64,000 bases of DNA from Psammoneis japonica (taxonomy: Eukaryota). The notes below the pieces were generated by a model. That model was given only the letters and a program-made list of their open reading frames with translations. It had not been told where the DNA came from and made no database searches. Of the stretch, positions 25,371 to 59,559 are shown piece by piece. Position 1 is the stretch's first letter. Every line of letters starts with the position of its first letter. The translations under genes and the position numbers were made by a program. Location: the NCBI GenBank assembly GCA_008632985.1, contig QPGO01000111.1, positions 62,001-126,000 of the forward strand, given 5' to 3'.

Positions 25371-25431
25371 AACTATCTACCTCGTTTGCCTAATTTAGCT
25401 ACTTTATTATTTACACAATTGCCACAAAATA

Positions 25432-29035: not shown

Positions 29036-29082
29036 CTTTGATGCTTGGTTTTAAAAATTCTCTTTCTTTCGCATTTACATTG

Positions 29083-32749: not shown

Positions 32750-32796
32750 TGCTCCTGTCGTTTGTACCTTTCTTGCAAACATCACAGTCCCGGCCT

Positions 32797-33420: not shown

Positions 33421-33659
33421 GGCTGGCTTTCTAATTCTTTGCGTCGCGAAGCAGTGCCGCGCGGGGATCGACGGCCAGTCGCGCGTCTCTCTGGGGGGAG
33501 TGAGTGCGAGTGCCGGCAAGTTTGTCCCGCATTCGAAATTCAAAAAATCTGGTCAGATGCATGACGGGTGGGTGACAGGCGAGGTGAGACGATGAGATGT
33601 GATCGATCGCGACGGGAAACTGGAGATTCTCTCGAGTGGCTTGTGCCTCGGATGCACGT

Positions 33660-34720: not shown

Positions 34721-35905
34721 GTTGCATGATGAATCAAAGCATGGACCAAACTCTTCCTGTGTCTGTCTGCGCAACTCTTTTGCCATCTGTCAGTGGAGTG
34801 GCTGCCTCTTCACTTGTTCTCCTGTGGTTGTTGTCTCCTTCTTGACTCTCTTGCTCTTTGTCCTGCAGTGTTGCTCTTGCATTGTGTTGAGATCATTTTG
34901 GAGCAATCGTTGTCCTTGTCAGTTGTCTCTGCCAGAATGTTGGCATGTGGTGAAAGAGACAAGTCTGCAAGGCAGGGTCCCAACTTCCTTTTTTCTTGTC
35001 TTCAACTGTGCCACAAAGTCTTCAGCCTTGATGTTGCCCATGCCAGCACCTGCGGGAGTTTTGAAAACTCCATTGTCAAGCCTGGTGCATCTTTCATGAT
35101 CAAGATGCACACCAAGCCGGGTCTGAAATGGTGCTGTGGCAAGTGCATCTGACATTGAGTTGGATGCACTGACTCTCTTTGCCTGCAAGGAGACTGTTGT
35201 GTTGACTTGATGTTCTTGCTTTGTAGCTTGCTTCAATTCATGGGCATTTTGACATTGCTGAAATGCTGTGGGATTGCAGAGCCAGCTTGAACACAGGCAC
35301 CAAAAATGCAGATTGATGCTGTTGCTTCACATGCTCAGAGAGATTGCTTCCTTGTTGCTTGCTTTGCATGCACGCATTTGCATCTTGCAAATGACAAAAA
35401 GCACAGCACTGTTTCTACAGAAGAAGTTCTTCTTGTTGAGAGAAGCTGCTGTGTTGTCAACAACAGACCAGACTGTGCTGTCATCAAACTGCTTCATTCC
35501 ATGAGTCACTCTGCTCTCTGCAGACCAGCTCTTGCATCATGAAATCACAATTGTCCAACCTGTCAAAGAAGCTCCAAGTTTTCATCTTCTTCATCTTGGT
35601 GGACTTCTTCTGACTGCAGCTGAGTCATCAAATCTTTTGCATCCACCAAGCATTTTTTACAAAGCACTGGCAACTGACACTGTGCTGTGGACAGAAGATG
35701 CTGAAGTCATGCCACACTGCCGATTGTGAGCGACACACCAAAAATTGAAAGATGCTGCTGAGAGATTTCCTGCAGGGCCCTGCTCTGGCTGGCACCTGAG
35801 AGCAGACCCAACTCAAACTGTCTTGGACAGAAGGTTGTGTGGATGAATGAGAAAGTGCAAAATGTGAGCAGCAAAAATGACCGCCACTGTGATTTTCCTT
35901 GCATG

Positions 35906-38213: not shown

Positions 38214-38327
38214 TGTCGCCCACGTTCCCGACTACCGACTGCGCGCGCCGACATCAAAGCATCGCATCTTGTCGATACAGCGAAGATATCATAACTCTAA
38301 AAAAGAGGGTGCAGCACATATTGCACC

Positions 38328-38783
38328 ATGAGTTTAGCCGAGAAAGCAACAGAACTTGCAGAGAAATGGGGAGCTTCGTTCACCAAGGGTGCCAAGGACG
38401 GAGATTTTTCGGCTTTTGAAGAGCTCTTTGTCAAGGATGAGCCGGTTTATGTCGTTTTACAAGATTCCCAAGGAAATGAAATTGAATGCATTGTTGAAGA
38501 TGATGGAGACGAGAATTCCTTCACTTGGAAGGAGCTAATTGACTTATTCAAGAAGGATATAAGCGCTGATACGAACTATTTCAAAACGGAAAGCGACTGT
38601 CTCGGAGTCTTGGGCGATCGTATGATTATGGAATCTTGTCGTTTCAACAAGGATGGCGAAATCTACCTGGCAGCCTTCTCCATTCTAACTTTGAATGAAG
38701 ACGGAAAGGTCAAAGAGTATGAAGCCTTTTCGGAGCCGCAAGCAGCAAATTTGATGGCTGCTGCTTCTGCAAAATTAGCTTAG
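38328..38783 (+). CDS. 151-aa acidic protein, probable SnoaL/NTF2-like fold
   Basis: Intact ATG-TAG ORF with normal composition. N-terminal helix + FEELF and C-terminal LTLNEDGKVKEYEAF pattern resemble the NTF2 superfamily (fold is inferred). Confidence 0.8.
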   Translation: MSLAEKATELAEKWGASFTKGAKDGDFSAFEELFVKDEPVYVVLQDSQGNEIECIVEDDGDENSFTWKELIDLFKKDISADTNYFKTESDCLGVLGDRMIMESCRFNKDGEIYLAAFSILTLNEDGKVKEYEAFSEPQAANLMAAASAKLA

Positions 38784-38882
38784 CTTTGATACTTAGTTTT
38801 AAAAATTCTCTTTCTTTCGTTTTTACATTTTACTCCTACAGTAAAGTTTGTCGCTTTCATACAAATATCATATTTCCGGCCT

Positions 38883-39500
38883 TCAATAACCACGACGGCG
38901 GGCACGGCGGGCCTGTCGGCGGCGTCCCGCTCCCGTCATGGCTCCTCCAGCGGCTCCGGCGGCTGCTCCCATCTTTGCTCCTTGTCCCGCGTCGCCTGCA
39001 ATGGCACCAGCAACCGCCCCAACGACGGCACCTTTTGCAGCTCCTCCCGCAGCTCCCTTGACCACGTGATGCTCATTTCGATGTTGAGGAGGAGGTGCCT
39101 GTTTCTGTGCGGGGGCGGGCGCAGGCTGAGGAGGAGGCGCGGCCTGAGGTGCGGGAGCTTCTTGCTTGGGTGGTTCGGGATTTTTGAGCTTGTTGATTTC
39201 TGCCTTGAGTTGAGCATTCTCTTCTTCGAGTTCCTTGAAACGTTCTGAAATTTCCGAATCTTCACCACCACCACCACCTTGAGCGAGACTTTGCGCAAAA
39301 TCAAGTCCCTTTTTCACTCTCTTGGTATCGAGGCCAGACAATCCAAGATCTACTTTCATATCCTCATCTGACAGCTCTACCAAAAGGCTTCCGTCAACCG
39401 AATTCTCACGAAAGGCATCTTGCTTCTTACCAAGTCCAATGGCAACTAAGAAGAGACAGACTTCGTCCACGGTATAATCTTTTGGCTCTTTCACCACCAT
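38883..39500 (-). CDS. SAM-domain protein with coiled coil, Pro-rich linker and C-terminal glycine zipper
   Basis: YTVDEVCLFLVAIGLGKKQDAFRENSVDGSLLVELSDEDMKVDLGL (SAM) and GAAGGAAKGAVVGAVAGAIAGDAGQGAKMGAAAGAAGGA (glycine zipper). Confidence 0.88.
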   Translation of the reverse strand: MVVKEPKDYTVDEVCLFLVAIGLGKKQDAFRENSVDGSLLVELSDEDMKVDLGLSGLDTKRVKKGLDFAQSLAQGGGGGEDSEISERFKELEEENAQLKAEINKLKNPEPPKQEAPAPQAAPPPQPAPAPAQKQAPPPQHRNEHHVVKGAAGGAAKGAVVGAVAGAIAGDAGQGAKMGAAAGAAGGAMTGAGRRRQARRARRRGY

Positions 39501-39719
39501 GGTTGGCTCTTTCTAAGAATTCTTTGCAAAAACGCGTGGATTATAAATATGGCATCGAGATCTTTCGCCGCGCGCATCAGTCGCGCTCGCGTCGGGGGGA
39601 TGCGTGATGCTCAATGCGTGTGGTGCGTCGTGCGTCATGATGGCTGGGAGGTGATAGACGATGGTGACGGGAAGCTGGAGATTCTCTCGAGTGGTTTAGG
39701 CATCATTGTACTGGTACAC

Positions 39720-40722
39720 ATGAAAAAGAGGAACGGCCATGAGCTTAGAGGCAGTATTTCAGAAAATTGAGGAAGTCATCAAGAGAGATCTTAGATCTTA
39801 CGCTGTCGGAGAAGGATTGCTTTCACAATTTTGGGGACAAGCTAAGTCAGATTGCGCAAGGGTTTATGACGATTGCCAACATTCAGCGCCTTCACTTCAA
39901 GGTGGCGAGTAAAATAAAAACGAAGACGGCAACACGATTGCAGGGATAATATCATTTCGATGGGCTGATTCCAGGAGCCTCAGGTCAAGGAAATTCGACT
40001 CTACAGTTGCCGTTTATGGCACATCGCTCTGTTCTGCGAAAATTAGCGAACCAAGCAGAATTTCGCCTGAAATTTCAGTTGGTGTCTAGCTCAGCGACGG
40101 TCAAGTTTGTCCGACAGTCATGCCAGTAATTGATTCTGTTCAGATCGATAGTGAACGAATGTCGATGATCACGCCCTATTACCCGCTAGACGTATCATCC
40201 TTGGATTTGAGGAATTCCCCTGAGACGGTCACTAATGCTGCCATGTGCGGATTGGTATCGGTCAAAGCGTTTTCAAACCAAAAAATATGTCATGCTGACA
40301 TCAAACAGAGCAATATGATGCTGGAACGGGCAAGAGGAAAAACGGCAGTGACGATTGACCTTGGATCCAGTGTTCCACACGGTGAGAGCATCACGGAGCT
40401 CTCTTTTGCTTTTGGACTGGACTGTGCTCCCACAGGCTCCCTCGGATACGACATGACCTGTCTAGCAGTTTCCATTGTGCATACGACGACTTCGATAAAT
40501 GATCCACTGAGGGAAGAAGTAACGCGAGCTGGGCTCTCACGTGCCATCGGAAAACCGCAAAACGTTGCTTTAAAGGTTGCAAAAGCTTGTCTGACGGAGG
40601 GTAAGAACATTGATGAAGTTTGGGAAGAGGCCAAAGAGTTCATAGAAAGTGAATATGGAAATGCGGAATCGCTTGTTGACTTGGAGTACATATTGCCACG
40701 AACGACCTATTCCGTTGCATGA
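39720..40722 (+). pseudogene. Protein kinase-like sequence; C-lobe open (40120-40722), N-terminal part interrupted
   Basis: Catalytic-loop-like HADIKQSNMML and DFG-equivalent IDLGS. Upstream frames contain stops/frameshifts. Confidence 0.65.
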
Positions 40723-41514
40723 CGAATCAAAGTAGAGGGACAAACTCTTCCCATGTCTCTCTACGCAACTCTTTTGCCATCTATCAGTGGAGTCGCGATC
40801 CCTTCACTGGTGCTCCTGTGTTTGTTGCCTCCGTCTCGACTCTCACGCTCTGCGTTCTACGACTTTGCTCGTGCATCGTGTTGAGATCATTTGGGAGTAA
40901 TCATTGTCCTTACCAATTATCTCTTCTAGAACAACAGCATACGGTGAAAGACACAAGTCTGCGAGGCGTGGTCCCAACTTCTTTTTGTCTTGTCTTCTAC
41001 AATACATAATTCTTCGGCCTTGATACAACCTTTGCCAGCACCTGCTGGAGTTTAAAACTCTATCATCTAGCCTAGTGCGTCCTTCATGATCGAGATGTAC
41101 AATAGCTTGGTCTATGAAATGGCGCTACGGCGAGTGCGTCCGACATTGAGTTGGAGATACCAACTATCTTTGCCTCCAAGGAATGTTGTGTTGACACAAT
41201 GTTGCTTCGATTCATTTCGATTCATGGGCATTTTGACGTTGCTGAAATGCTCTTGGATGATGGAGCCGGTTCGAGCACTGGCGCCAAAACGCGGATTGAC
41301 GCCGTTACTTTAAATGCGCAGAGAGATTGCTGCCTTGTTGCTGACTTTGGGAACACGTATTTGCATCTTACAAAGAACGAAAAGCGCAGCACTGATTCTA
41401 GAGAAGCTCTTATTGTTGAGAGAAACTACTGTTTTGTTAATATCCAGACTGCAGTATCATCGTAGTACTTTTTGGACAAGTCATTCTACTCTCTAGACTA
41501 GTTCTTACATAAAA

Positions 41515-43578
41515 TCACAATTGTCCGACCTGTCGAAGAAGCTCCAAGTTTTCATCTTCTTCATCCTGGTAGACTTCCTCTAGTTGTAGCTGAATCAAAT
41601 CCTTTGCATCCGCCATGCCATTTTTTTTACAAAGCACAGCGTTGCATGCGCTCTTGTACATTTCTCCGCCGTATTCACTAGACACCAAGCTCCAAAACGA
41701 GTACAGCTTCTGGTTTGTTCGTTGCACGTACATGAGAATCATGTTCAAGGCTCTGGCAGCCTCCAACACAATGACCGTCTTTTCTGCAAGGACCGAATGA
41801 TAAAATACTTGAACCAACAAAGCAATCCCCGACTTTACTCGTATGCTACCAACTTGGTCATGATTCCTATTGGTTGAGTTGGTCGTTGATTCTTCCGTGG
41901 CGTTTGCAATCATCTGAGTTCGAAGCAATGCGATTCCCTCGGATGTTTGACAGTACAAAATTGAAAAGAGACTCAGCAACTCCACACACAACGCATCGAG
42001 TCCATAATCGTCAGCCGCGTTTGCGTCACTTAGATAATCCCCGAGAACCCTATAGTCCATAATGTCGAGAATCAATGCCAACAGTCGACGGGAGTAGTTC
42101 CCGTTCCCATATAAATCCAAGAATTCCTTTTGATTTGACAGGACGAGCTTCTTCATTACATGAAAAGCACTCGTGCAAAGGTCCATGGCCTCTTCAAATT
42201 GCGCAGAAGCTAGATCAATTGTGGCGGCACCAGATACGCTTCCCTCGTACAGGGCACGATGAAAGCGGTGTTTCGTCTTCTTGTTTAGGCATGAATGAAA
42301 GAAAGGCTCCAACAAGACGCACATGATACATTCGCCGCAGTAGCTGTTCTTGTCGCAAAAGATGCCTTGCTTTTTCGGAAAGTAGATGTCTTGCCACCAC
42401 CTAATTGAAGAGTCGTTGGATGAAATCAACAAGGATAGAATTAAAAGAGATTCGCGTGCCAACTTCAAGGAGCTATCCTTGTCGCCGACGAGTGCCTGCT
42501 TGACAAAACCAACGAGCCTGGATATCACGTCACGACTTGTGTCCACTCGATACAGAGCATTCGATGTAGCGCTACCAGTCATGGAAGCGTCAGAGCCCAG
42601 CAGTGTTTGCGCGAGTTGTCCCAAACCATTCTCGCTAGACGATATCTCGCCGTCCTTGACGAATCTTATGCGACTGCGCTTTCTTGATGGCCTTGCTCGC
42701 ATAAAGTCATCTCGTCCGGGTTTGCTCCACAGCAAGATCTGATAGAAAACTTTAAGTGCTATGACTTGCTCTGTCTGGTTCTGGAGACACGATTGCGTAC
42801 GCTGAATGATCTCCCAGACAAAATCCAACTCTGAAATGGTATTGCTACACTGTCTGACATGGGACAAAAACTGGTATAAATCTTGCAGTTTACTGTCAGT
42901 AACGTCCCGAGGAAGTATCGTTGAAAGAATATGAGAAGCGAGTCGTTCGACAGTCCCATAATCGCGACGAGTAGCCTGTATTGGAACGTGATGATGAACA
43001 ACGATTGTTCTCGTCTTTGTAACGACACGAGGAGGAGGCGGAGTAGGTGTAGGTGGTAGAGCAGCAGCAGCGTTTGGTGAAACTGAGTGACTAATCAATG
43101 ACGCATTGGGATGATGCTGTTGGTGTTGCTGCTGCTTTTGGTGCTGTTTGAGTCTCGCATGAGCGAGATTAGCTTCTTGCTGAGCGCGACGCAATGCCTC
43201 CTGAGTTTGATGCAATTTCTGTCTTGATTCTTCTTGTACCATTTTGACGGAATGGCTCGTTTCTGCCTGAACCGTCGCCAAGGTAGCTGATAATTCAAAG
43301 ACCTGATCATCTTTTGCGACGAGTTCCAATCGTAATTGTTGAATCTAGAGAGAGAAACAAACATACCTGAGTACACAATGTCGAAAAGCAGCGAAAAAAT
43401 GCCGTTCGTGAAAACATACCTGTCGTTGTAGTTCTTCCTTTTCGCGCTTATCAGCATTATCATAGGAAGGAGGGATCAAGGGAGGATGATTAGAAGCTTG
43501 TTCGTGATAGCCATTTGTTCCGGGCGCGGATGAAGAGCCGTCGGTAGTCCACGCCATTTTGTCTTTGGACTGTTGCAT
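41515..43578 (-). CDS. Uncharacterised ~660-aa protein, N-terminal coiled coil and helical C-terminal region, 2 exons
   Basis: Exon 43420-43578, GT-AG intron 43345-43419 (cag|gtatgt...ctctag|att), in frame with the long ORF ending at 41515. Normal codon composition. Confidence 0.85.
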
Positions 43579-43817: not shown

Positions 43818-44905
43818 CATTTCCATTGTTCTGCCGTCGGCAAATTCCAAAGCCCTCTCTAGAGAGAGAGACTGCGGTGCTCCAAGCTGGTGCTTTTGTC
43901 CTCTCTCTGCTCTCTCGAACATCCAGCTCATTGGCTTCTCTCTTTCTTCTGTGTCCCAGCACAGTTCAAGAGAACAACAACTCAACTTTTTGTTCATCAT
44001 GTGGTGAAATGATGTTGCTTGTGTGGGCTGGTGAAAGGCTGATGCAGAGGCAAAGTGGTTAGAGACAGCTGGCTAAAAAAATGCAAAATGCAAGAAAAAC
44101 GATTGTGGTGCAGCGACACTGGCCACCATGAGACAGCTCTGTTCTTCTCTCATTGTGACCTTGGTCGGCACCTGTCATTGATGTGTGACAAAGGCCGCTG
44201 CATTTAGATCCCACCTGATGGCACCACAAGAGCTTTGAGTGCCATGTGGTGGGTGCTGATTTCTGTGGAAATTGGGACAAAACAATCACATGACAGAGGA
44301 TCCCAACGCAGCAAAGTCGTGCAGCGGCTCTGTGTCATCAAGCATGGAGGAGCCCCTCTCTGTTGGTCATGAAAGTTGCAAATTAATTTGCTCTCAGCAG
44401 CAGTGAGAGTGAGCATTTGGCCCTCTGTCAGCTGTCACCAGACATGTCAAGGCACCTCTGTGCATTTGCTGGAAGAAGTCAACAAACTTTTGCAACATGC
44501 GTTGTCATGTGCGCACCACATGTGCATGTCCACATGTCAAATAAAAGCACATTTCAATCGCACGTCAATCGTGGGTTCGTACGAAGTGCAGATCAGTCAC
44601 ACAGAAGTGATTGGATGTCGAGAATCGCAAATGCGATCGTACGATGATGTTGACATCTCATGTGTCAATGTCAATCGCATCCGGACAATCTGTCGTCACG
44701 ATCATATTCTCCGAAAGGCCTTTTGTCTGCAGGAGCAGCACAAAAGGTTTAGGCCATTGAGAACCCGTTCGGAGAAACCCAAAATGATTGCGCAGAAATG
44801 GTTCTCATAATTTTCACTTTTTGAACTTCATTCTACTTTCGTTTGCACTCGTTCTTCGAGCACAGTGCATTGTGCATACACACCACAGAAGGCAACAAGT
44901 TCAAG

Positions 44906-46060
44906 ATGAAGCTTTCACCTCATGCAACCAACGCCAAAACTTCGTCAAGGCAGGAGAAAATCGTCCCTCAACCGCTGGAATCGAACTCCGAGCCGAAGAG
45001 CCTCAAACCGAGCCAGCACCTCAAGATGGAGCAACGTTTTCATCCCGAGAAGAAGGACAGCCGCACCTGCACCATCAATGTTGAGTGCCACAAGAAACAA
45101 GGTGTCCCCAAGTTCATCGAATTTCTCAAGAGCTACGATCAACTTCCAGTGGGCCAGAATGTCAGGAAGCAATCTGATGAGTTTCGTCTCATGCACACGT
45201 TGCTCCAAGGAGACGCCCTGCGTGCTTTCGAGAATGCGGCAGCGAACCTTGAAGACGAATCTGCGGAAGGAAGCTTCGAGAAATGCCTGCAACATCTCAC
45301 GAGGCATGTGTTTCCCAAGAACGCACTTTCGGTGCAGAAACGTCATTTGCGTCGTGATCTCAAGAAGCCGGAGTCCATGAAAGTACGCGAAATTGCTGCT
45401 TGGGTCCAGGAAGTCAACGAAGACCTCAAGTTCCATCCTCCCTTTGGGAAGGAACAGAAGATCGAGGACGACGAGCTCAAGGACATCCTCTTCAACCTTG
45501 CACCTCGAAAGTGGCAGCGTCAGTCGACCGTCCAGGGTTTCGAAATTTTGAAACACACCCATGACGAGCTGGTTGAGTTCTTGGAGCGCCCAGAGGTCGC
45601 AGAAGACACATTTGATGGCATTCATGCCAAGGCTGATGGCAGTGGCGGCACTGCATCAAAAGCCAAGAGTGGTTCCCAACGTGGTTCCAAAAATGGTCAC
45701 CAACATGGTGCCGAAAAATCTCAGTCCGAGAAGTGGTGCATTTCATGCGAGAAATCCACTCACAACACGGACAAGTGCTGGTCGATCAAAAGACTTGCGA
45801 AAGAACGCCGTGGGAACTGTGAACCCGACCCGAAACGGCACCGTTCAAATGGCAATCGCACGTGGTCTCGTCGCGACAACGATGACGCCACTCGCAAAGA
45901 AGAGTTGAATGCTGTGGCGATCCAAGCAGTTCAAAAAATGCTCAAAGCGAGTTCTTCGAACAATGATGAAAAACACAAGAGCAAAGATTGTGATTCTGAC
46001 ACCCTTGACGAGGAAAATTGTCAGTTTGAAAAAATGACGCGCAGTGATTCCGAGGAATGA
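44906..46060 (+). CDS. gag: Gypsy Gag (hypermutated)
   Basis: Long ORF right after the 5' LTR with zinc-knuckle-like CISCEKSTHNTDKC. Confidence 0.85.
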   Translation: MKLSPHATNAKTSSRQEKIVPQPLESNSEPKSLKPSQHLKMEQRFHPEKKDSRTCTINVECHKKQGVPKFIEFLKSYDQLPVGQNVRKQSDEFRLMHTLLQGDALRAFENAAANLEDESAEGSFEKCLQHLTRHVFPKNALSVQKRHLRRDLKKPESMKVREIAAWVQEVNEDLKFHPPFGKEQKIEDDELKDILFNLAPRKWQRQSTVQGFEILKHTHDELVEFLERPEVAEDTFDGIHAKADGSGGTASKAKSGSQRGSKNGHQHGAEKSQSEKWCISCEKSTHNTDKCWSIKRLAKERRGNCEPDPKRHRSNGNRTWSRRDNDDATRKEELNAVAIQAVQKMLKASSSNNDEKHKSKDCDSDTLDEENCQFEKMTRSDSEE

Positions 46061-46156
46061 CTTGCACCGCAAGAGGAGTCTTGCGCTCCACTGGACATTG
46101 GGAAGCCCAGAAAAAGGGCCAAAGTAATTCATGCTAGTCCAGCAGTCGTCGCCCAT

Positions 46157-49100
46157 GTGAATGCTTCATTGGGCAAGGCGAAAAATGAGCCTCTACGCGT
46201 TCTCCTCGACAGCGGAACATCGTCAACCATAATTTTGCGCAAATTCACGCGGAAACTCAGAACAAAAGCATCCGCCACCAAACTCTGGGAAACCAAAGGA
46301 GGGCTCTTCACGACTGACAGTCGATGTAAGATCCAATTCTCCTCACCCGAATTTGACAAACATGAGATGATTGAAACAACGGTGTGTGTTGACAACTCCC
46401 CTTCTTCTTCGAGTCGTTATGACATGATCATGGGACGCGACTTAATGTCAAGTCTTGGGATGATGTTGGACTTCTCGAATGAAGAAATTAAGTGGGAAGA
46501 TGCAACTGCTCCTGTGAAGAATGTTGGCACACTCTTCGATGCCGATGTTTTTAAGTTGATTGCCGATCACATTGAGGAATCTCATGCAGTGATTGGTCTT
46601 AATGACAGGGTCAATCGGATCCTTGACTCAGACTGTCACGCTGCAAACCTCAACAATGTGACCGCAGCAGCCACTCATCTAACTCCTGAAGAGCAGAAGC
46701 AGCTGAACTTCCTCTTAAAAAGATTTGAAAACCTTTTCGATGGTTCTCCAGGCAAATGGACCGGGAAACCGGTGGATTTAAAGTTGAAATCGGGCGTGAG
46801 TCCGTATCATGCCAAACCATTTCCCGCGCCACAAGCCTTGGAGGCGACCACTCGTAAGGAGGTTGAAAGACCATGCAAGTTGAAAGTCTTAAGAAAAATA
46901 AATTGTTCTGAATGGGCGGCTCCAACCTTTGTTCAACCCAAGAAAAATGGCAGAGTTCGGTTCTTGTCCGACTTTCGAGAGCCAAACAAGAGGTTAATTC
47001 GCACTCCGTTTCCTCTGCCCAATGTTCAGGACATGCTACAGAAGCTTGAAGGCTTCATGCATGCAACGTCCCTAGATTTAAACATGGGACACTATCACAT
47101 CGAATTGACGCCGCATGCACGTCGGTTGTGCACGATCGTCATGCCTTGGGGCAAATGTGAGTGCTGTAGACTCCCGATGGGAATCTGTGGAGCTCCAGAC
47201 ATTTTCCAAGAGCACATGAGTGAGCTCATGGCAGGTCTGGAGTTCGTCAGAACTTACATTGACGACACATTGTGTCTTGCAAAAAGTGATTTTCAAGACC
47301 ACCTCAAGAAGCTTGAAACGGTGTTCTCACGCCTAGAACAAGCCGGATTGAAGGTCAATGCCGAGAAGTCCTTTTTCGCTAAACCCGAAGTAGACTGTCT
47401 GGGCTTTCATGTCACCCGCAAGGGCATCAGTCCGATTCCAAAAAAAGTAGAAGCGATTCACGCGATCGCAACTCCTAAAACTCGCAAGGAATTGCGACGC
47501 TTCATCGGTGTGATCAACTGCTGTCGAGACATGTGGCCTCGACGATCTCATGTTTTAGCTCCCTCAGCCAAACTCACTTCCACCCAAGTAAAGTGGCAAT
47601 GGACCGAAACAGAACAAAAAGCCTTCGAAAATGTGAAGCGCATCATCTCCAAAGATGTGCCATTGTCATGCCCGAATTTTAACACACCCTTTGAGATGTA
47701 CACCGATGCTGGTAAATCTCAATTGGGGGCGGTTGTCACTCAGAAAAACCGACCAATTGCCTTCTACAGCCGCAAGCTGAATGGAGCGCAGACGCGTTGT
47801 GCCACAACGGAAAAAGAGCTGTTGTCCACAGTGGAGACGTTAAAAGAGTTCCGAAATGTGCTGTTTGGCCAACAGACAAATGCATGTGCGGATCACAAAA
47901 AATCTCACACACAAAAATTTCACAATGGACAGAGTCATGCGTTGGCGTCCAACAATGGAAGAGTGCAGTCCCGAAACAATGTGCCTTGAGGGCAAGGCAA
48001 ATGTTGTCGCAGACGCGATCAGCCGACTTGCTGTGAAGAAAATAGAACCTGTGGAAACCCTCAGCACAGAAGAGCTGGCTGAAAAGGTCCTGCCAAAATC
48101 CTGCGACAATGTCTTTCCGTTAAATTACAAAGTTCTTGATTGTGAACAAAAATGGGATAAAGACATTCTCTCCCAATTGTCAAACAAGACGTTTCGTGCG
48201 AAGACTTTTCGTGGAGGCGAGCGAGACCGGTTGCTCATGTGTCACAAGGACAAAATTGTCGTCCCGAGGACGTTACAAAAGGCAGTGACAGATTGGTGTC
48301 ATGCATGCCTTCTTCACCCTGGCATAAATCGAACAGAAGAAACAATCTCACAACACCTGTGGTGGTCCACCTTGCGTGAAGACATACGAAAATACGTGTC
48401 GAGATGTGAGACGTGCCAAAAATTCAAAAAGAAACACAAGAAATGTGGACATTTACCTCCTGAGTGCGCAGAATCCGCACCATGGGAACGACTGTGTGTG
48501 GACCTTGTTGGGCCATACAAAATGCGTCGTAAGGGAAAGAAAAAACCCCCAGTCCTGAAATGTTTGACCATGATCGATCCAGCAACCGGATGGTTTGAAG
48601 TTGTGGAAATCCCAAATGAGGAGTCCACAACTGCAGCTGGACTGTTAGAACGAACATGGCCAAGCAGATGTCCTTGGCCATCGTCAATTGCACATGACCG
48701 TGGAAGTGAGTTCATCGGACACCAATTTGGAGAAATGGTGCAAGATGATTGTGGCGTTGAAGTCAAGCCCATGGCTGCACGAAATCCACAAGCAAACGCA
48801 ATTGTTGAACGCGCACATCAAGTGCTGGGGAACATGCTCCGTGCGTTTGATTTGCAACACACACCTCTAGATGCTGAGGATCCTTTCGCTGGAATGCTGT
48901 CAGCAGTGGCATTTGCGGTGCATTCCATGTGTCACACCACTGCGCAAGCTACACCAGGACAACCAGTCTTCAACAGAGACATGACATTTAACGTCCAACA
49001 TGTCACGGACTGGAAATCAATCCAGCAGCGAAAACAAGAAATCACAAATAAAAACAACGCTCGAGAGAATGCTCGACGTGCTCCTCACACGCACAGAGCA

Positions 49101-49241
49101 GGAGAAAAGACACTGCTCGAGAAAGACTCGCAAAAATTAGAACAGCCCCATGTTGGACCGCATGCAACAACAACGGCACATGCTGATGGCACAGCACAGA
49201 TCAAACGCAGTAACGTCATTGACACTGTCAACATTCGTTGA
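46157..49241 (+). pseudogene. pol: Gypsy Pol: protease, RT, RNase H, integrase (hypermutated; frameshift ~47900)
   Basis: LLDSG, SLDLNMGHYHI, LPMG, YIDD, YTDAG, TTEKELL, HPGINRT..CETC, CVDLVGP, DRGSEF, NPQANAIVER. Confidence 0.93.
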
Positions 49242-51820
49242 ACAATGCCGTTTAACGACTGACTCCAATGTGCAATTAGGGAGGCGAATGCAACATGCAT
49301 TGTCATGTGCGTGTTGCACATGTGTGTCCACACATTAAATAAAAGCACATTTCAATCGCACGTCAATCGTGGGTTCGCACGAAGTGCAGATCAGTCACAC
49401 AGAAGTGATTGGATGTCGAGAATCGCAAATGCGATCGTACGATGATGTTGACATCTCATGTGTCAATGTCAATCGCATCCGGACAATCTGTCGTCACGAT
49501 CACATTCTCCGAAAGGCCTTTTGTCTGTGGGAGCAGTGCAAAAGGTTTAGGCTGTTGAGAACCCGTTCGGAGAAACCCAAAATGATTGCGCAGAAATAAT
49601 TCTCACAATTTTCACTTTTTGAACTTCATTCTACTTTCGTTTGCACTCGTTCTTCGAGCACAGTGCACTTTCTTGCCGAGTGAGGACCCCACCCACAATT
49701 TTCTGCAAGCTTTTTGAGGACAACTTGGCAGTGCTTGAAACAGCCAAAGTGCCCAAGATGAGGCCCAGAACATGCCACATCAACAATGTCCACCACCACT
49801 TCCACTCAGAGGTTGCCGGTGGACGTTTGCTGATTGAAGTTGTTGGCACCAAGCTCCAACAGGCGGATTTCTTGACAACCAAAATGCCCAACCTGTCAAC
49901 ATTCTTGCACAATCATCTGTCTGTGCAGGGATGGCAACAACTTGGACCTTTCGGCATGAGGGAGTGTGACATCATGTGCACATTTGTGTGTTCAACATGC
50001 CTCAAGCTGCAAGAATGACTTGTTGCTGTGACCACCATCAACAACTGAACCACCTGCAGATCAATCAATGCAAACCCAATCAAGAATTTTGAGGCTCAAA
50101 TCAAGAAGAGAGTTCACTTTGTTCTTGTTCTCACACGAACAAGAACTTCTTGTTTGTGTCAAGTCTTTGACCCCTGTTCATCCATGTTGCCTTCAGTGCA
50201 TCTTTTGGTCACTTCTTGTTTCTTTGCAGCTCTTGTTGGTTGCAGAGCAGCACAATTCATGTTCTCACAATTTGGAAATTGGTGAAAACCAAACACTGCA
50301 TGATTGTCTGTGTCAATGCTGTTTTAAGTCTCTGTGGCCCAAAACTCCACACACCCACAGAAGGATCTCATCAGTGCATCATTTGTGGAGCTTGTCAGCT
50401 GACCCCTTGCTTGACAATTGAGGGAGTGGAGCAACATCCTTTCTGGTTGATGCGTCCACAGAAGACCTCTGAGAGTTTAGTTGCTGACCCAAAGTTTTGG
50501 TGCACCGCCGCGCAGTGCACCGGCAGCAAATCTGCTTGCTCTGTGAGACAAGACAGTTGTCCACAACAAAATTGTCACAGCTCACAATGCACATGCATCA
50601 ACAGCATTTTCTTGCATGACATTGAGTGGTCCAAGTGTTGCCTTTGGGAGGAAATGAAAAATGAACGAGAAATTTGGCACAAACACTCTTGCAAGAACCA
50701 GCATCATCACTCAACTTGCCAAATCTTGCCAACCAACATTTTGCAAAAATTGATCAATTCCACACAAACTGGGGGCACACTGTTCTCATGTGGAGTTTGC
50801 AGCAATGGCATGTGCCCCTGTTTTCCAAGGAAGAGAGAGAACACCACCACAAAAGCCTGTCAGGTGAACAGCATCAATGAGCTGCAGTGTTTGTGTGGCA
50901 CGATTTGTGTTCTGAGTGGCAAAATGGCTTGACAGTGTGCAGAATTGTTGCGGTGCATGGGCCTCTGTGCAAGCAAATCCATTTCCAGGGCATTTCACAT
51001 GCAGCCATTGTGGTGGTTGATGTTCAACAAAGGCCGAAAATGCATCTCATGTGACAAAGAGACAACATGTGAGAATGCCCAACTCCTTCTTCAGATTTGC
51101 CCCTTGGCTCAATTCACACAACCAAATGTTTGTGTGGAGGCCCCTGCTCATGGGTGGATCTGTCCAGCATTCCCAAATGCCCAATCGCGCTGATCAACAG
51201 ACTGTTTTTGCACAAACCGCAGCTGCTGCATGTAAATTTCTTCAACAGTCTCACTTCCGAAGGCGCCCCCCAACACCAACCCATGACACGGGCAGACAGC
51301 AGACCTGTTTTGGCAACTGAGGCAAGTGCGTGGCTGCAGGAAGTGGTCAGCCCCGCACACTTGTGACTTGGAGCTTTCTGCGGTGAAAATTGCGCACCCG
51401 ACCCGACACTGACAAAAACAGTCAGACAACTTCCGCTTGCCACAATGTGAGCTGCGTCTGATCAACAATTTGTGCAGAACAAGGGGCAACAGACAAAAGC
51501 CAGAACAAACATGTTTTGTGTTTGAAGTTGTTCAATGTTTTCAAACATTGTTTGAAGTGTTCAATTTTTTGTTGCAAATGTGTTGCTCTCCTGGGTTTTG
51601 CCCTTTTGGTCATTTCAAACTCATTCTGACAAAGTTTGAACTTGTTCCAACAAGCTTGATTGAAGTTTGGAACAGCATGTGCACAGTTGCACAAAAACAG
51701 CATTTTTTCTCTTGTTGCCCGGTGGGCAATGACAGAATTCTAAGAAGAGTTGAAGGTGCATGTCACTCTCTGGCTGAAACATGTGTGACCATGTACAAAA
51801 AGCCTGTCAGTTTGAAGAAA

Positions 51821-51884
51821 GCGGTAAATGGTTTAGTCGGTAACCGGTTACAAGAGGACCTAGGTTCGATTCCTGGGTATCGCA
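51821..51884 (+). ncRNA. tRNA-like Pol III unit in TRIM 5' LTR (no normal anticodon arm)
   Basis: A-box tggtttagtcgg, T-arm ctagg-ttcgatt-cctgg (B-box), acceptor-like gcggta/tatcgc-a, followed by TTTTT. Confidence 0.7.
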
Positions 51885-52321
51885 ATTTTTCAGGTTGATG
51901 GGTCGGATTTAATCGAGTTGGTCAATCTTGTTTAAATCCTGTCATGGTGCGAGGACCGTTGATGATTTGAACCCAGGTGTGTGTGCTCCTTCAAGATGAC
52001 TCTAAAACTGAGGAGAGGCTGCGGTGAGACAGACCGACGATGCACATAGTGCTCTTATTAGGGATGCCGAGGCCGGAATGGCCGCCCAATTATCAGTTCG
52101 CCGGGGAGGTCATGACATGTGCAGAAAAATGTGGCCCAGGTAGAAGGGGAGCTGTGAGAAGTATCATTGTCCAAAGAAAGGAACGTCAGACAGCTTCGTG
52201 ACGTCAGACAGCTTCGTGACATATGGGGAGTGACAGAATTCTAAGAAGAATTAAAGGTGTATGTCACTCTCTGGCTGAAACATGTGTGACTATGTACAAA
52301 AAGCCTGTCAGTTTGAAGAAA

Positions 52322-52385
52322 GCGGTAAATGGTTTAGTCGGTAACCGGTTACAAGAGGACCTAGGTTCGATTCCTGGGTATCGCA
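52322..52385 (+). ncRNA. tRNA-like Pol III unit in TRIM 3' LTR
   Basis: Identical to 51821-51884. Confidence 0.7.
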
Positions 52386-52446
52386 ATTTTTCAGGTTGAT
52401 GGGTCGGATTTAATCGAGTTGGTCAATCTTGTTTAAATCCTGTCAT

Positions 52447-55400
52447 TGACAGAAATTGAAGGCAAATGGCAAGAATTCAAACAACAACTCCTTGCTGCTG
52501 TCCAAATAGCAGATGAGTCTCCGCTCAGAGACCGTTGCAGGAGCCGAAAGACGTGTAAGTCGGTGTGATCGGGCTACTGTTGTCATTCTTGTGAACCTTG
52601 TGGCTCGAAAGCACACTGCATCGCGCGTGAACGCGCGGAACTGAAGCACACAAAACTGTGCACGGTGACTAAACAGCGCGCGATGCTTCGCGCGCACCTG
52701 AATCCTGCTCAAATCCTGTCACTCCCCAGTTTGCTTGAGGAGCCACAGAAACAGATTCGACTTCGGATGGAATGAAGTTCCAGAACATGAGGGGGCGGAG
52801 AAGGTCCCAGATTTGGGACAACCCCAATGCTTGCTGAGAATGTCAGCAGGGTTGCGGGAGCCTTCGATGAAGTGGAGCTCAAGGCAGCCAGAGGCAATTG
52901 CCTCACGCGCATGGTGGAACGACAGCGCGGCATGTCGCTTGTGCAACTTGGAGTGCGGGATGGTGGCACTGTCTGCAACCGACTTGTTGTCACCGAACAT
53001 GCAGCTGACGTTGCGGATCGGGACGCCAAGGCAGCGCAGGGTGATGCGCAGGTCGACAATCTGCTCAACACAAGTCCTTGCGGCAACAAATTCAGACCCG
53101 CAGGTCGCAGTCTCCACGGTGGCTTGTTTCTCAGAGAACCAATCAGCCGGGAATTTGTTGAGGAAGTGGAGCATTCCCATGACAGAGCGCCCGGTGAGCA
53201 TGCAATGGCACAAGTTTGCATCGACGCAGTGGGTGGTGGCGACGAACTTGCCAAGGGGCGGTGGAGCGTCCTTCGGGATCATCTCTTCTGCTCCACCACA
53301 CACGGAATGCATCCACCCACAGGCCGGAGCAGGGAGATCCGAATGGCCGGGCTCTTCCGTGCGACGCGGAGAGCACCGTGTCGCATCTTGGAGAGGTGCC
53401 CACAGACGCGCTTGGCACGATCCAAGTGGCCTTGACGGGGCGCAGCTCGGAAGCTGGAGAGTGACATGACGGCCGCGGCAATGTCAGCTCGACCAAGGGA
53501 CACTGCCCATTGGAGTGAACCAACAAGAGACTGGAACTTGTGATGCCATCGGGTCCCAGCAGTTCGGAAGTGTCCAGCTCGGGGTGGTCACCCTTCTCTA
53601 GAGGTGACAGGGCGTTGGTGGTGGGTTTCTCCCCAAACAGTCGGGCACAGCTGTCAACCATGCGCTCGATGTGCTTGCGCGGAGACAGGCACAAGGTTCC
53701 GTCGGGTTCCCGGGAAAAGTCGCAACCCAGATGGAACTCAATGGGTCCCGCACCCTTGAGCTTGAACTTGTGCTTTTCCGTGAGGGTGTCGACGAAAGAT
53801 TGAGGGTCCTTCATGGCAATGGCCAGGTCATCCACACAAACGGCAATGTGTTCACAGTGGTCGCCGTTCCTGCGCATCCAAATGTCGGGTTCGGCGCGGC
53901 AGGGGAAGAAGCCTTCAGCTCGCAGGCAGTCGGCGAAGCGCTCGTGCCAGCGGAGACCGGAGCTGCGCAGTCCATGCAGTGCCTTGTGGATGACAAGGAT
54001 GTGTCCTTCGAGTTTGCCGAACTCGGGTCCAGCTGCAATGTAAAGCTTCTCCTTGGTGGTGGCTTCAAGGTGGGCATTGCCAATGTCGGTGGCCCATGTC
54101 TCCAACTCGTTGAGTTCGGCCAGGAAAATCATCAGCCGAAGGCCACGGAGGGAGACTGCTCCGGAGTGGACACTGTCGACAGGTGCGTCCGTGAGGTGCC
54201 CGTCGGCTGCGAGTCGTGCCTTGTGGCGACCGTCGTGTTTCACGTCGCACACCAGGTGCACTCGGATCTTCTTGTGTCCCGCAGGAGGAGTGGAAGACTT
54301 GAAGGGCCCGCAGTCATGGAAGACTTCGCATTCGTCGAGTTGGTCCATCTCGAGATTAGTTGCGTCTCCCCACTTGCGGTTGCCGTTGCGTTCGTCTGGT
54401 GACATGGCGTGTTTGCAGTTCCGGGGAACTTCGCATCCATGCTTGCAGCGAGGTGCAGTGCGGAAGGAGCGAAGCTTGGCTTGGTTGGCCATGCGAAACA
54501 GCTTCTTTTGGCGCCTCGCGATGGTGCGGAACCGCTTCCAGCCATCCGTGTCGAGGAGTCCGATCTCTCGTGCATGGATGGCACAGGTGACGGGGTCGTC
54601 CTTGGCGATGATGGCAAGAGGCTCGGACGTGATCTCCCCACTTTCCCATTCAAGCATGATGTTGTAGCTGGAGCCTTTCCAGGTTGGGTCGTGAGGCTTC
54701 AGAGGTCCTTCGTGTGACACGATGCGTCGAAATTTCCAAACAGTGGTGTCTTCGTCTTCTTGCTCAATGTGATTCATGATGTCATTGCAGGCAAGGACTT
54801 CCTCGCATTCGTCATTGTTGACAGAGCAGACGAACTCAGTGAGCTCGGGATTGCCGTTCACTTTCCATTCGTGGTCTTCGACGGCCTTGACGATGCGAGC
54901 TCTGTGGCGTTGTCCGTCCTCTTGTGGCTGCATGAGGAAGGTGCGTCCAATGATGTCTTGCGGATCGAAAACTGGCATCTTGGGTGTCCTGATCTCCCCA
55001 TCAGGAGAGTCGACGGGGTTGTCGTCATGGCGAGATTTGATGATGGGTTCAGGTGGCTCCCCATCAGGAGGATCAAGACGCAGGTTTCGGACAGCAGGAT
55101 CGGGGGTGGCGGAGCGGACGTTGGACCGGCAGAGGATTTTCTGATTCTCGTCAGATAGAATCTTGAAGGTCATCTGGTGGCCGACGTGCTCAGCAATGCC
55201 AACGAAGCGTCCACGCAACTCACGGGATTCGGACGGCCAATCGGAGTCATCGAGGTGGAAGCACACGGGTTCCCACCAGTGAAAGCGAAGCAATGGGCTG
55301 ATGTCCGGGGTGGAGCCAGTGAGAGTCTCAAGGGGCGTGCGCCAGTGGAGACGTGGGGACGCTGTGTGGTTGAGCATGAAGCACACGCACATGAGCGCCA

Positions 55401-58400
55401 GCAGCCATGCATGGGCGGGCGAACCAAAACGATCCATGACAGTGTTCGCCATGCGCTTCACGGTCTGGCATCGACGCTCGGCAAAGTTTTGGTGTTGCTG
55501 GTGAGGCTCACTTTGCCAGCTAGAGATGAAGAGGGCGCGCAGGAGCCCGAGCACTTTGTTGCTGATCTCAACTTGAGCACGGTTGCTGATGAGTTTGGAT
55601 GGGGCACCACGTTCACGGATCTGATCCTCGAGTGTGTTGACAAACTCTTTGTCCGTCTTGGTGCCACAGACGTCAGTGACGGTAGACTCGGTGCCAACAA
55701 ACAGTTGGGCGCTGGTGCAACCAGAGTCAACGGCCGGGGTGTCGGCACAAACGGTGTCAGTGGCGATGGGCTCGTTGCGGCGGTGCACATTAAGGGCGGG
55801 GTTGGGTGATTTGCAGGCCTTGCGAAGGTGTGTACCGGCGGGCATGCGGGCGCACTGCGTGGTGCAGTCAAAAGTGCGACGGACCGCATCGGCAGGTGGG
55901 AAGCCAAAGCAAGGCCGAAGAGACTCGAAGGGGGGGTCCTTGGGCTGTGCAGTGCGCTCCGGAGGTGGAACATCATCGCCCTGGGGGCCAATCGCATGCA
56001 GATGACACTCGTAGAACACGTCGTCGTTCGGAATGAGGTGATCATCGAGGGCGGACGCGTGATCGGCAGACAAGGAAGCGGACATGATGGTCTCGTTGAC
56101 AACGACACGATGACGGCAGTTGCCGCATTCGTCAAATGGGTTGGCAGTGGGATCGTCCTGCAGGTCAGAGATCGCATCGCACCACTGGTCGTCGTCAGTG
56201 ACAGAGTGATCGAGGACGGAAGGGTCCCATGTGTCATCACCGGTGAGGATGACATGGGGCAGGGTGTCCCATTCGGCGTCAGTGCAAGGTCGCATGGCAA
56301 CATGAGGCAGGCCAGCCTTGATGTCAATGGGGATGACACAGCCATCAGGAGTGGCAGTGCGTTGCAAGCCGTTGGGCACCTTGACAGAGCGATCGTTGAC
56401 ATCCTGTTTGTGCCATTCGAGCTGGCCGCAGGAATGGATGGTCTTGCCCTTGCCCGTGCATGCGTGCTGATGGAGTGTGGCGATGACGGGACCACGCTGG
56501 GTCTCAATGACGGCACCAGCGGTGACAATGGGGATGTCCACCAATTGATGATCGTCAATGCCCTGAACGTCGACTTGGCGAGAGGTGCGTGCAATGACGC
56601 GAACGTCGTCGCCAGCAATGCCGCCGTTGGCCCCACGATCGACTAGAGCACCAGTGCGTGTGGAGCGATGAGCAGAAGCAGAGCAAATGACATTGTGGTT
56701 GTCAACGCGGCGGTAAGTGCGACCGTCAAGTTCCATGTCATCTGCAGAAGCTGGCGGGGTAGAGGAAGCGGCGGATGGCCCCGGTCGACTGGCATTGGGG
56801 GCTTGGTTAGGAGACAACAGACGTTGCAGATCACCGGGTGGCAGTGGCTTGTGCTTGGTGAGGTGCGCCAGGATGGGATTGTCCGAAGTGGCGTCCACAT
56901 GTGGAGCGGAGTCACCAGAGTCAGCAGGAGTCGTGTTGGACAAGTTGACATCACCGTCACTCCCAAGGCGTTGGTCGTGAAGGTTGGCCGTAACAGACTC
57001 ATGGCAGTTGCTGGCTCGCGGGTTGCGGGGAGGTGGACGAGAATGCTCAAGGATGATCGCCTTGGAGGAATCGGGCAACGAATCCCAGAGCCGTTGGTGG
57101 TCGGGAGGGAGACGTCTCCATTGGACACCGGCGAGGCTGGGACCGCGGGTGCAGGCAGCATTGGCTTGAAGGACGTCAACGTCGCTGTCAATGTCGTAGA
57201 ACACATCGTCGGACGGTTCCTCGGAGTGGACGTCGTGTGCGCACATGGCGCGTCGGGGAGCTCGAGGTGTCGTCTTGGGTTGAAACGTGCTGTCGTGCTG
57301 AGCTGCGGCGGAGAGGAGCAAGCCACAGCATTGATCGTATGTGAGGCTCTTGCCACTCTGCGCACGATGCTGATCAGCTTGGTTCTTGACAGCACGGAGT
57401 TCCTCGACAGGGTGCACGGCATTCTCGAGCATGACGCGCTTCTGTCCTTCAGAGAAGTGGTCACTGGCCGGGATGAGTGCCTCGCACTTGCGCAACTGAT
57501 CTTGCCAATGAAGGATGAACCCGTGGGTCGGACCTTTCCAAGTGCCATCACCAAGACGCGCGGTGGTGAGGTGCGTGAGCAGGGTGGAGGACTCGACAGA
57601 TGCGCGGGTGGAGGCAAGCGCGCACTCAGACAAGGAGCGGCAGACGGTCTGTGCATCAGAAGACCCCACATTTTCGCGAATGAGAGCCTTGCCCTTGTCG
57701 GTGAGAAGGATGCGTTCGAAGACGGCGAACATGCACTTTTGCTGTTCAGCAAAGAGCAGTTTGTCTTCGGGGCTGGTCGGTTTGTACGACGAGTCTAGAA
57801 TGCACTCGACGTCTTGGGCACGGGCTTGTGCCACAAGTGAGGTGTGCCAAGTGTGCCACTGCTTGTCGGATTTGAGAGCCGTGAAAGCGGTGGGATCACG
57901 CTTGATGCCTCGCTTGAAGTCCCGCACCGGGTCGCGTGCCTTGGTCGGGTTGGTGACATGTGGAGGTGCAAGGGGTGAGCTGCCGATGGACACAGAAGAC
58001 ATGCAGTCGGGGCTGAGGCGGCAGGCAAGGAACTCGTCATGCGTGAACAAAGAGGAGTCGTTGGCAACGTCAAGACCTTTGTGTGCTTTGACAATGTGCA
58101 GACTGACCAGTGCTGCTAACATGTTCTTACAACCATGGGGCAAAGGGATTGCATTGGTGCCGTTGTCGTGCTCAAGCGAGTCGATTTGGGACGGTGTGAA
58201 CGTGAATGGTTCCTGATGCGAGTCCGTGCCGTCTTGGGCCAAAGCCAAACGAAGAGGACTCCCAGCACCTTGGGCAAGCACGGTTCCAACCACGTGCTCA
58301 AAAACCATCGGTTTGTTGCTGACGAGTGAGAACCATGGCAGACAAAGGTGGTGTCAGGACAATCAATTCTGGTTGGGAAGCGAAGGTGGACTCGAAACTT

Positions 58401-59554
58401 GGGTGAGAACAGACTTGACTTGAAATGGACTTGACTTGAAATCTTGAACTGTCTTAAAATCAGAAGTCGCCGGGCTTTGTCATCCCGTTCGTTGTTGAGT
58501 GCTAAACTTCCTGTCCGGTCCGTAGAGTTGTGCCGGCACGTCCGAACCCGCAGCCAGTGGCGCTTTGGGTTGCTTACGAGCGGAGTAGCGGGTTGTAAAC
58601 CCCTGCAGGCAAGCTGACTAGAGGTGGACAAGACCCCCGAACCGTTCTTGTTTTATGTCGGTTGGATTTCCCGATCAGGCTGGCCAGCTGATGCAGGCGT
58701 CAGGCGCTGTGGACGAACGAACAAACGCGGGAAAGCACCCTCGCCCCAACGCAGGCTGTGATCACGGCCACCTGCTCTCACAGTCGTCCTCGTGGACCTA
58801 GCAGAACTGTAGAGCACCAGCAGTCCGGGGTGGATCAGGTGCAATGGACTCGGTGTGCTTGCAGAGTGGCAGCAAAACCGAAGTCCGAAGAGTGGATAAA
58901 GGTTCTTGGCCGTGAAGACATGCACATGTACACACATGTCTTCAGCGACGAAGATCCTTGAACATGCAGGGTTCTTGACCGTTAACCGAGGAACAGGCAC
59001 ATCAAGGGATGTTGATCAAGGATGGGACTTGGACATGACCGTTGAATGTAAGTCTTCAGCGATCAAAGGCAGCACAATCAATCCAGATATCCAGCGGTAA
59101 GGAGACTTGACGGTGACGTTAACTTCCTGCCGATGCCCTGGTGTTGAATGCGCGTAGACTTGCCGATGTATGTAGAACACACACGGAGGTCCACGTAGAA
59201 TTGAAATAGCGTCGTTGGTAAATCAACGACGACGATGGCGGTTGCTCAATGGGTTGACAATGAGCAAGACTGTTAATCTGACAGAAATTGAAGGCAAATG
59301 GCAAGAATTCAAACAATGACTCCTTGCTGCTGTCCAAATGGCAGATGAGTCTCCGCTCAGAGACCGTTGCAGGAGCCGAAAGACGTGCAAGTCGGCACAA
59401 TCGGGCCACTGTTGTCATTCTTGTGAGCCTTGTGGCTCGAAAGCAAACTACATCGCGCGTGAACGCGCGGAACTAAAGCACACAAAACTGTGCACGGTAA
59501 ACTAAACAGCGCGCGATGCTTCGCGCGCACCTGAATCCTGTTCAAATCCTGTCA
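52447..59554 (-). mobile_element. Full-length Ty1/Copia (CoDi-like) LTR retrotransposon
   Basis: ~275-bp LTRs at 52447-52721 and 59279-59554, PPT actggggag adjacent to 52721, domain order gag-PR-IN-RT-RH, ~1 kb 5' leader. Confidence 0.95.
52719..58336 (-). pseudogene. Copia Gag-Pol polyprotein (hypermutated; frameshifts near 58310, 53540, 53330)
   Basis: LVDRGANGG (PR), EPHQQHQNFAER (IN), DVKHDGRHKARL, DIGNAHLEA, KALHGLRSSG, AVCVDD (RT; YVDD>CVDD), VDANL, ETATCGSEF, NPADILSK (RH). Confidence 0.93.
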
Positions 59555-59559
59555 GGCAA

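Follow-up and report, generated by a model that had tools for sequence, protein, structure and literature searches.

The closest described counterpart of the mutational pattern considered here comes from the chlorarachniophyte alga Bigelowiella natans, whose integrated viral DNA undergoes TpA-restricted A:T-to-G:C hypermutation (Mettrop et al., bioRxiv 10.64898/2026.01.13.699255). We find such a pattern in a 64,000-nucleotide stretch of the genome of the diatom Psammoneis japonica (contig QPGO01000111.1, positions 62,001 to 126,000; hereafter, the window), where it divides two adjoining retrotransposons: a terminal-repeat retrotransposon in miniature (TRIM), which carries a tRNA-like unit in each of its long terminal repeats (LTRs) and keeps many of its TpA dinucleotides, and a Copia element, very probably inserted in the same event, which has lost most of its own. 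Judged by its sequence pattern, the signature of the window is a match to that of B. natans: according to the parts of the preprint available, the changes there are likewise A:T-to-G:C, nearly exclusively at TpA, on both strands, and confined to regions, and the TpA-poor genes are enriched for reverse transcriptase (bioRxiv 10.64898/2026.01.13.699255). In the window, a minor class of ApA-to-ApG changes stands beside those at TpA. The two cases differ in host, a chlorarachniophyte as opposed to a diatom, and in their targets, which in B. natans are inserts of viral origin, including one that is single-copy and silent; element-by-element selectivity, LTR-pair dating, and the escape of a neighbor do not figure in those parts of the preprint (bioRxiv 10.64898/2026.01.13.699255). 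A literature search on diatoms, TpA, and retrotransposons returned nothing on such a mutator by title.

Repeat-induced point mutation (RIP) of fungi is another process of dense, context-specific transitions, one that kills transposons and leaks into adjoining DNA. The window resembles it in the density and context specificity of the transitions in its transposons, but TpA is lost here rather than gained, and only one of two duplicate copies has been changed.

The TRIM is best compared with Helenus, a part of TRIMp3 whose hosts are given as fungi, animals, and one plant and whose fungal families are thought to depend on Copia elements (PMC10886601; Kojima 2024). With two LTRs, a tRNA-derived part, and a primer-binding site (PBS) plus a polypurine tract (PPT), all recognized from sequence, the element in the window is structurally a TRIMp3 of the Helenus type. 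What it has in common with the published families, as far as their description was available, is its nature as a small nonautonomous LTR element (716 bp, versus 311-1263 bp published); the tRNA-derived sequence in each LTR, with GGTTC of box B and YGG of box A kept; and the PBS, PPT, and likely Copia partner (PMC10886601). The 5-bp target-site duplication (TSD) of the published kind is present here around the TRIM and Copia composite, not around the TRIM by itself. It differs in its diatom host (versus fungi, animals, and one plant; PMC10886601), in a tRNA-like part that has no anticodon arm, and in its physical co-integration with a Copia element within one TSD. A run of five Ts (T5) right behind the unit is a further difference: because it follows the tRNA-like part directly, a putative RNA polymerase III (Pol III) transcript would probably be only ~70 nt long and would not be the genomic RNA. 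Diatoms go unmentioned in the titles and abstract openings of those Helenus/TRIMp3 papers that a literature search listed. Cassandra, a group of plant TRIMs, also has a segment of a Pol III-type small-RNA gene in both LTRs; that segment is 5S-derived, whereas the one here is tRNA-derived, and the partial sources on Cassandra, which has plant hosts, describe no link to a mutator.

TpA loss across the window

Over the whole window, TpA reaches 0.20 of its expected frequency and CpA/TpG 1.55; in kilobase blocks, TpA falls to as little as 0.00-0.06 and CpA/TpG rises to about 1.8-1.9, with genic blocks keeping TpA at 0.45-0.63. A segmental duplication in three blocks (95%, 90%, and 83% identity) pairs a repeat-rich copy (28505-35667) with a genic one (38235-41637). 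Within its longest block (33593-35667 versus 39645-41637), 62 of the 68 TpAs of the genic copy read TpG (33) or CpA (29) in the other copy, a single site runs in the reverse direction, and CpG has decayed at 61/84 sites in the repeat-rich copy. The genic copy keeps its TpAs, and conversion is seen only in the repeat-rich one. The Copia polyprotein was compared with 40 homologues, the first of length 1780-1960 among 120 listed: the 32 columns in which at least 80% of these have Tyr hold 1 Tyr, 17 Cys, and 11 His in the window (28/32 Cys or His), and retention of other conserved residues is 76-100%. The Copia reverse transcriptase reads CVDD, which we take to be the counterpart of the YVDD motif. 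That a mutator runs from TpA to TpG/CpA in the window is confirmed; its changes are A:T-to-G:C and would probably arise by deamination of adenine in DNA.

Non-TpA transitions between LTR partners lie at 51749/52250 in the TRIM and at 52595/59427 and 52708/59541 in the Copia element, and all are ApA to ApG, on either strand. Since the LTR pairs contain no other kind of non-TpA transition, these changes belong to the same process, which suggests a 5'-neighbor preference of T far above A. ADAR enzymes have a similar 5'-neighbor preference, according to the discussion of Mettrop et al. (bioRxiv 10.64898/2026.01.13.699255). The LTR pair of a Gypsy element (44491-44869 versus 49289-49667) has 8 sites at which CpA faces TpG, split 6:2 by direction, from which a strand bias per copy follows. 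Old tracts of the window have TpA at 0.00-0.06 and CpG at 0.02-0.3, and the Copia and Gypsy elements have lost most of their TpA, with CpG at 0.8-1.1; as the old tracts have lost both dinucleotides and the young elements mainly TpA, the loss of TpA must be much faster than CpG decay.

Unequal conversion of the TRIM and its Copia neighbor

The TRIM has no coding capacity, and its LTRs, of 215 bp each, are 98% identical. The initial annotation placed it at 51790..52445; the right end of that placement stands, and the true span is wider on the left (51730-52445). A TSD shared with the Copia element had also been supposed, and is indeed present: GGCAA at 51725-51729 and 59555-59559 surrounds the composite with a 5/5 match, and the 5-bp flanks of the TRIM itself mismatch (GGCAA versus TTGAC), as do those of the Copia element. 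Because this single duplication flanks the composite and neither element alone, the simplest reading is that both entered by one integration event, which the arrangement of the sequence makes very probable. Two cDNAs would have taken part, their outer U3 ends being inserted into the target to yield one 5-bp TSD and their U5 ends being joined with one extra T. At its 3' end the TRIM reads AAATCCTGTCA, in agreement at 11/11 positions with the complement of the Copia 5' end; with terminal AAATCCTGTCA-3' common to both elements, it is probable that a single integrase acted on the two.

In both elements CpG is close to normal (0.8-1.1, compared with 0.09-0.27 in the flanks), and they are thus far younger than their surroundings. 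Their ages relative to each other are less easily told from background divergence: outside TpA/ApA, there are 1 transversion and 1 indel over 275 bp between the Copia LTRs and no difference over 215 bp between the TRIM LTRs, too little to separate the two. This would allow the TRIM to be much the younger, its GGCAA stemming from a second event at the Copia edge (end-joining capture at a break, or target reuse with a small deletion), and unconverted young short insertions are indeed present within converted DNA, the terminal inverted repeat (TIR) element at 36493-36884, discussed below, being one. Against a later insertion, neither element has matching 5-bp flanks of its own; the composite has them at 5/5 positions, for which the chance is about 1 in 1000; and the break would have had to hit the exact point between TSD and LTR end. 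We consider successive insertion quite improbable.

The initial annotation noted that the TRIM keeps many TAs, and it does: there are 31 TpAs, an observed/expected ratio of 0.59 that lies within the 0.47-0.63 of genic DNA, whereas the flanks have 3 TpAs versus 126 expected and 4 versus 130 expected. The only clean measure of conversion after insertion is the comparison of LTRs. Those of the TRIM differ at 4/215 positions (51749 G/A, 51752 G/A, 51759 C/T, and 51790 C/T, 5'/3' LTR), all four in the first 61 bp, and show no difference from 51791 onward, in agreement with the earlier description of LTRs identical over the tRNA-like part and changed only in the outer ~60 bp of the 5' copy. At three of the four positions, TpG/CpA in the 5' LTR stands opposite TpA in the 3' LTR, the remaining change being ApA to ApG; the TpAs at 51741 and 51794, which flank the mutated cluster, are intact. 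The direction of these four changes is taken from the window-wide direction, without an outgroup copy. A RIP-like reading, in which the 3' LTR mutated from C to T, is ruled out by that same window-wide direction.

The Copia element was earlier said to be almost fully converted, a description that fits the coding part (Tyr kept in 1/32 columns; TpA observed/expected 0.0-0.2) but overstates the case for the LTRs (~70% converted; observed/expected 0.25) and for the 5' leader (58400-59280; about 0.25-0.63). In its LTR pair, TpA is present in both copies at 1 site and in one copy at 6 (one of them beside an indel), and CpA faces TpG at 3. These last descend from TpA, since 20/20 CpGs are common to the pair and no CpG/TpG or CpG/CpA pair occurs, so that CpG decay in a single copy is not seen. 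A simple likelihood model puts per-copy conversion per TpA since insertion at 0.70 in the Copia LTRs, 0.72 in those of the Gypsy element (44491-49667), and 0.12 in those of the TRIM. By Fisher's test on converted LTR sites, the TRIM (3/26) differs from the Copia element whether the latter is counted conservatively (6/14; p = 0.044) or inclusively (12/20; p = 0.001). It is confirmed that these probably co-inserted neighbors fared clearly differently under the mutator.

One could suppose that the mutator comes in sporadic bursts of tracts and that the 716-bp TRIM was simply missed. Consistent with this, B. natans hypermutation arose in only some experimental lines, as the available part of the preprint reports (bioRxiv 10.64898/2026.01.13.699255), conversion is patchy in the partly converted DNA of the window, and the Copia leader is less affected than the coding part. 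At the Copia LTR rate, however, the probability that at most 3 of 26 sites are converted is 4e-7 (p = 0.6) or 6e-4 (p = 0.43), and it stays under about 1% when clustering into ~7 blocks is allowed for. The edge of conversion, moreover, coincides with the element junction: the TRIM TpAs at 52411 and 52434 have been kept, conversion is already present at the first informative Copia site, 52485-6, and 52446 lies in between. Luck of this kind is very hard to credit.

The unconverted part ends on the right at that junction, 61 bp beyond the 3' tRNA-like unit, and on the left 27-31 bp upstream of the 5' unit. The left edge could record a different history, in which the co-inserted TRIM was mutated like the Copia element and was later mostly overwritten from a younger TRIM cDNA or copy, only the outer ~60 bp being original. 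Resident Ty1 copies of yeast can be converted via cDNA. In favor of such overwriting, TpA conversion steps from 3/4 to 0/22 LTR sites within 4 bp, the surviving edge is converted at the level of the Copia LTRs, and the two LTRs are identical over the 155 bp past the step. On the right, though, the exchange would have to be confined to the last 12-68 bp, beyond which only a donor that was the same composite would offer homology; a donor copy was not observed; and no difference outside the mutator's own marks the two parts as separate in origin. We regard later overwriting as unlikely.

What the mutator may recognize

The initial annotation proposed that the tRNA-like unit may be a counter-defense. 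On this idea, TFIIIC/TFIIIB on the A and B boxes of both units would keep ~650 bp open and would exclude the mutator, or else the silent chromatin by which it is recruited. Each LTR carries 64 nt that match the Rfam tRNA model over its full span at 17.0 bits (E 2.3; gathering score 29); 8 nt replace the 17-nt anticodon arm, and the fold energy is -19.7 kcal/mol (z -1.88). The B box, GGTTCGATTCC, is exact in both LTRs and a predicted TFIIIC site; the A-box-like segment is TGGTTTAGTCGG, box A of the TRIM reading TGGTT...CGG (4/5 for TRGCY), and the T5 run starts 2 nt past the end of the unit. ARAGORN called 0 tRNAs over the window, the tRNA-like unit included, and Rfam at its gathering threshold reported 0 tRNA or other Pol III genes in the whole window.

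Several observations accord with a barrier. B box, A-box-like segment, and T5 run are identical in the two LTRs; 4/4 changes lie upstream of the 5' unit, ending 31 bp before it, with the next TpA, 27 bp before it, intact; and the segment outside is converted at 3/4 TpAs, as are the Copia LTRs. Yeasts offer the analogy, in that tRNA genes and TFIIIC sites are described there as heterochromatin barriers (PMC2040200, PMC4502379, in the parts available). The likeness is that, on one side, a B-box-bearing unit stands where affected DNA gives way to unaffected DNA; the differences are that the other edge here is an element junction, that the readout is mutation and not silencing, and that the unit is known here from its sequence alone. 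That other edge speaks against a barrier, if weakly: the 60 bp outside the 3' unit hold the TpAs at 52411 and 52434, which, because they lie outside the unit, a barrier placed at it would leave exposed, yet both are intact (a chance of ~0.09-0.16 at the Copia LTR rate). The unit, besides having no anticodon arm, has an A-B spacing ~9 nt below that of a tRNA, and its Pol III competence is only predicted; an equally sharp unconverted island and sharp small clusters occur elsewhere in the window with no tRNA-like match or sequence near; and the case is one locus only. A Pol III barrier thus seems distinctly unlikely. If it were true, a captured tRNA promoter would be a transposon counter-defense against a DNA-editing genome defense, and such a barrier could also explain why TRIMs have repeatedly captured Pol III units.

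The island just mentioned is the 392-bp TIR element at 36493-36884, which has terminal inverted repeats of ~22 nt starting CGCGTTCCAG and 28 TpAs (observed/expected 0.85) between flanks at 0.02-0.06. It gives no Rfam tRNA match at E up to 1, and its other copy in the window (19252-19643) is converted at both TpA and CpG. In partly converted DNA, changes fall in sharp clusters of 40-100 bp; at 28787-28878, for example, 7/8 sites are converted amid retained ones, with no tRNA-like sequence near. Since the edge of conversion at the junction and an island without a tRNA-like match are both found, a Pol III barrier is not needed, and we tentatively prefer, as quite possible if still short of probable, a mutator aimed at recognized elements or segments, with the tRNA-like unit being a hallmark of the TRIM family and not a shield. 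After insertion, the mutator would act at very different rates on the two neighbors: the silenced Copia element, a member of a hugely abundant family, would be recognized, and the short, noncoding, low-copy TRIM would escape recognition, the basis of which we infer. On this view, a single short stray tract, such as also occurs in other partly converted DNA, would account for the 42-bp cluster of the outer 5' LTR.

The difference in abundance comes from the summed depth of contigs of at least 80% likeness in one sample (4 runs). Single-copy sequence reaches ~62, the TRIM bins 418-1548, and the Copia bins 62,000-295,000; the TRIM depth amounts to ~10 internal-region equivalents, and the abundance of the Copia family is roughly 1000-fold that of the TRIM, a figure to be read as an order of magnitude only.

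Several points weigh against element-selective targeting. Depth summed over contigs does not equal copy number. Abundance or homology alone cannot be the trigger, since only one of the two copies of the segmental duplication is converted and since, according to the available part of the preprint, a single-copy viral insert is hypermutated in B. natans (bioRxiv 10.64898/2026.01.13.699255). A uniformly low rate in the TRIM predicts neither the conversion of 3/4 TpAs in the outer 61 bp of the 5' LTR, which is the level of the Copia LTRs, nor the step within 4 bp (51790 converted, 51794 intact); a barrier or later overwriting would predict both. Many copies of the Copia family carry CpA or TpG at the same sites (among the best 40 of 479 differences, all Copia), so that part of the TpA loss in the Copia coding region may have been inherited from damaged, trans-mobilized progenitors. 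Finally, the contrast rests on a single locus.

Features of the locus and their significance

Coordinates are collected in Table 1. The internal region of the TRIM contains a perfect 18-bp tandem duplication (52183-52218) directly before the PPT. For neither the TRIM nor the Copia element was exact complementarity of at least 8 nt, as expected of self-priming, found between the LTR and the 40 nt after the 5' LTR. Blastn returned only the two LTRs and no second TRIM copy in the 64-kb window; a purine/pyrimidine-recoded blast of the window for TRIM copies gave short noise matches only, E-values being meaningless for a two-letter alphabet; and patterns of the tRNA-like unit and B box with YR at TpA sites, by which converted copies could also be matched, had 0 matches among the metagenome contigs. 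A second run of the same sample yielded a 1183-nt contig that agrees with window positions 51880-52061 (182 bp, 1 mismatch), the match taking in the tail of the LTR, the PBS, and the internal part's first 115 bp; as the contig then diverges, a variant or rearranged relative of the TRIM must exist.

Table 1. Parts of the TRIM and Copia composite, with positions in the window
Feature	Position	Strand	Basis or remark
Left TSD copy, GGCAA	51725..51729	.	Read from sequence; identical to 59555-59559
TRIM, whole element, 716 bp	51730-52445	+	Repeat finder, pairwise alignment, coordinate check
TRIM 5' LTR, 215 bp, TGACAG...CTGTCA	51730..51944	+	211/215 identical to 3' LTR
Sole mutated cluster of the TRIM, 42 bp; 4 A:T-to-G:C changes (3 TpA and 1 ApA)	51749..51790	.	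LTR alignment
tRNA-like unit of 5' LTR; A box 51829-51840, B box GGTTCGATTCC 51863-51873, T5 run 51886-51890	51821..51884	+	Rfam, sequence reading
TRIM internal region, 286 bp, 8 TpA	51945..52230	+	Sequence reading
PBS-like TGGTGCGAGGACC	starts 51945	+	Sequence reading
PPT-like GGGGAG	52225-52230	+	Sequence reading
TRIM 3' LTR, 215 bp, 13/13 TpA intact	52231..52445	+	LTR alignment
tRNA-like unit of 3' LTR; A box 52330-52341, B box 52364-52374, T5 run 52387-52391	52322..52385	+	Rfam; identical to 5' unit
Lone T between terminal CA of TRIM and terminal TG of Copia	52446	.	Coordinate check
Copia, whole element	52447-59554	-	Repeat finder, alignments; tail to tail with TRIM
Copia 3' LTR, 4 TpA kept; PPT-like CTGGGGAG adjoins on minus strand	52447..52721	-	Repeat finder, alignment
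Copia polyprotein frame, 1736 codons open, RVT_2 domain (E 1.9e-21)	53143..58353	-	Open reading frame and domain match
Copia 5' leader, comparatively TpA-rich	58354..59278	-	25/45 internal TpAs within 58455-59274
Copia 5' LTR	59279..59554	-	Repeat finder, alignment
Right TSD copy, GGCAA	59555..59559	.	Sequence reading

Elsewhere in the window, a hybrid histidine-kinase gene contains a 1091-bp tandem duplication of 96.9% identity (24279-26461) and has normal TpA; its named homologues are all from diatoms (Entomoneis, Epithemia, Seminavis, Amphora, Attheya, and Nitzschia), at 37-46% identity. A frame with a Helitron-like N-terminal domain (E 9e-11), at 30686-32224, interrupts the converted copy of the segmental duplication.

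Among the smaller results of the locus is the occurrence of a TRIM of the Helenus type, as judged by structure, in a diatom. The one TSD and the matching LTR termini are, in addition, physical evidence for joint travel of such a TRIM and a Copia partner, and for use of the Copia integrase by the TRIM of this locus. A mutator that erases TpA has so far been described in one preprint, from another alga (Mettrop et al., as far as that text was available), and the locus amounts to a natural experiment on its choice of targets, the two elements being 1 bp apart and very probably having shared their moment of insertion. Per-site conversion in the TRIM and Copia LTRs is ~six-fold apart and changes within 51 bp; such a contrast between adjoining and probably co-inserted elements points to targeting at the scale of the single element and separates the candidate determinants: Pol III unit, copy number, and length.

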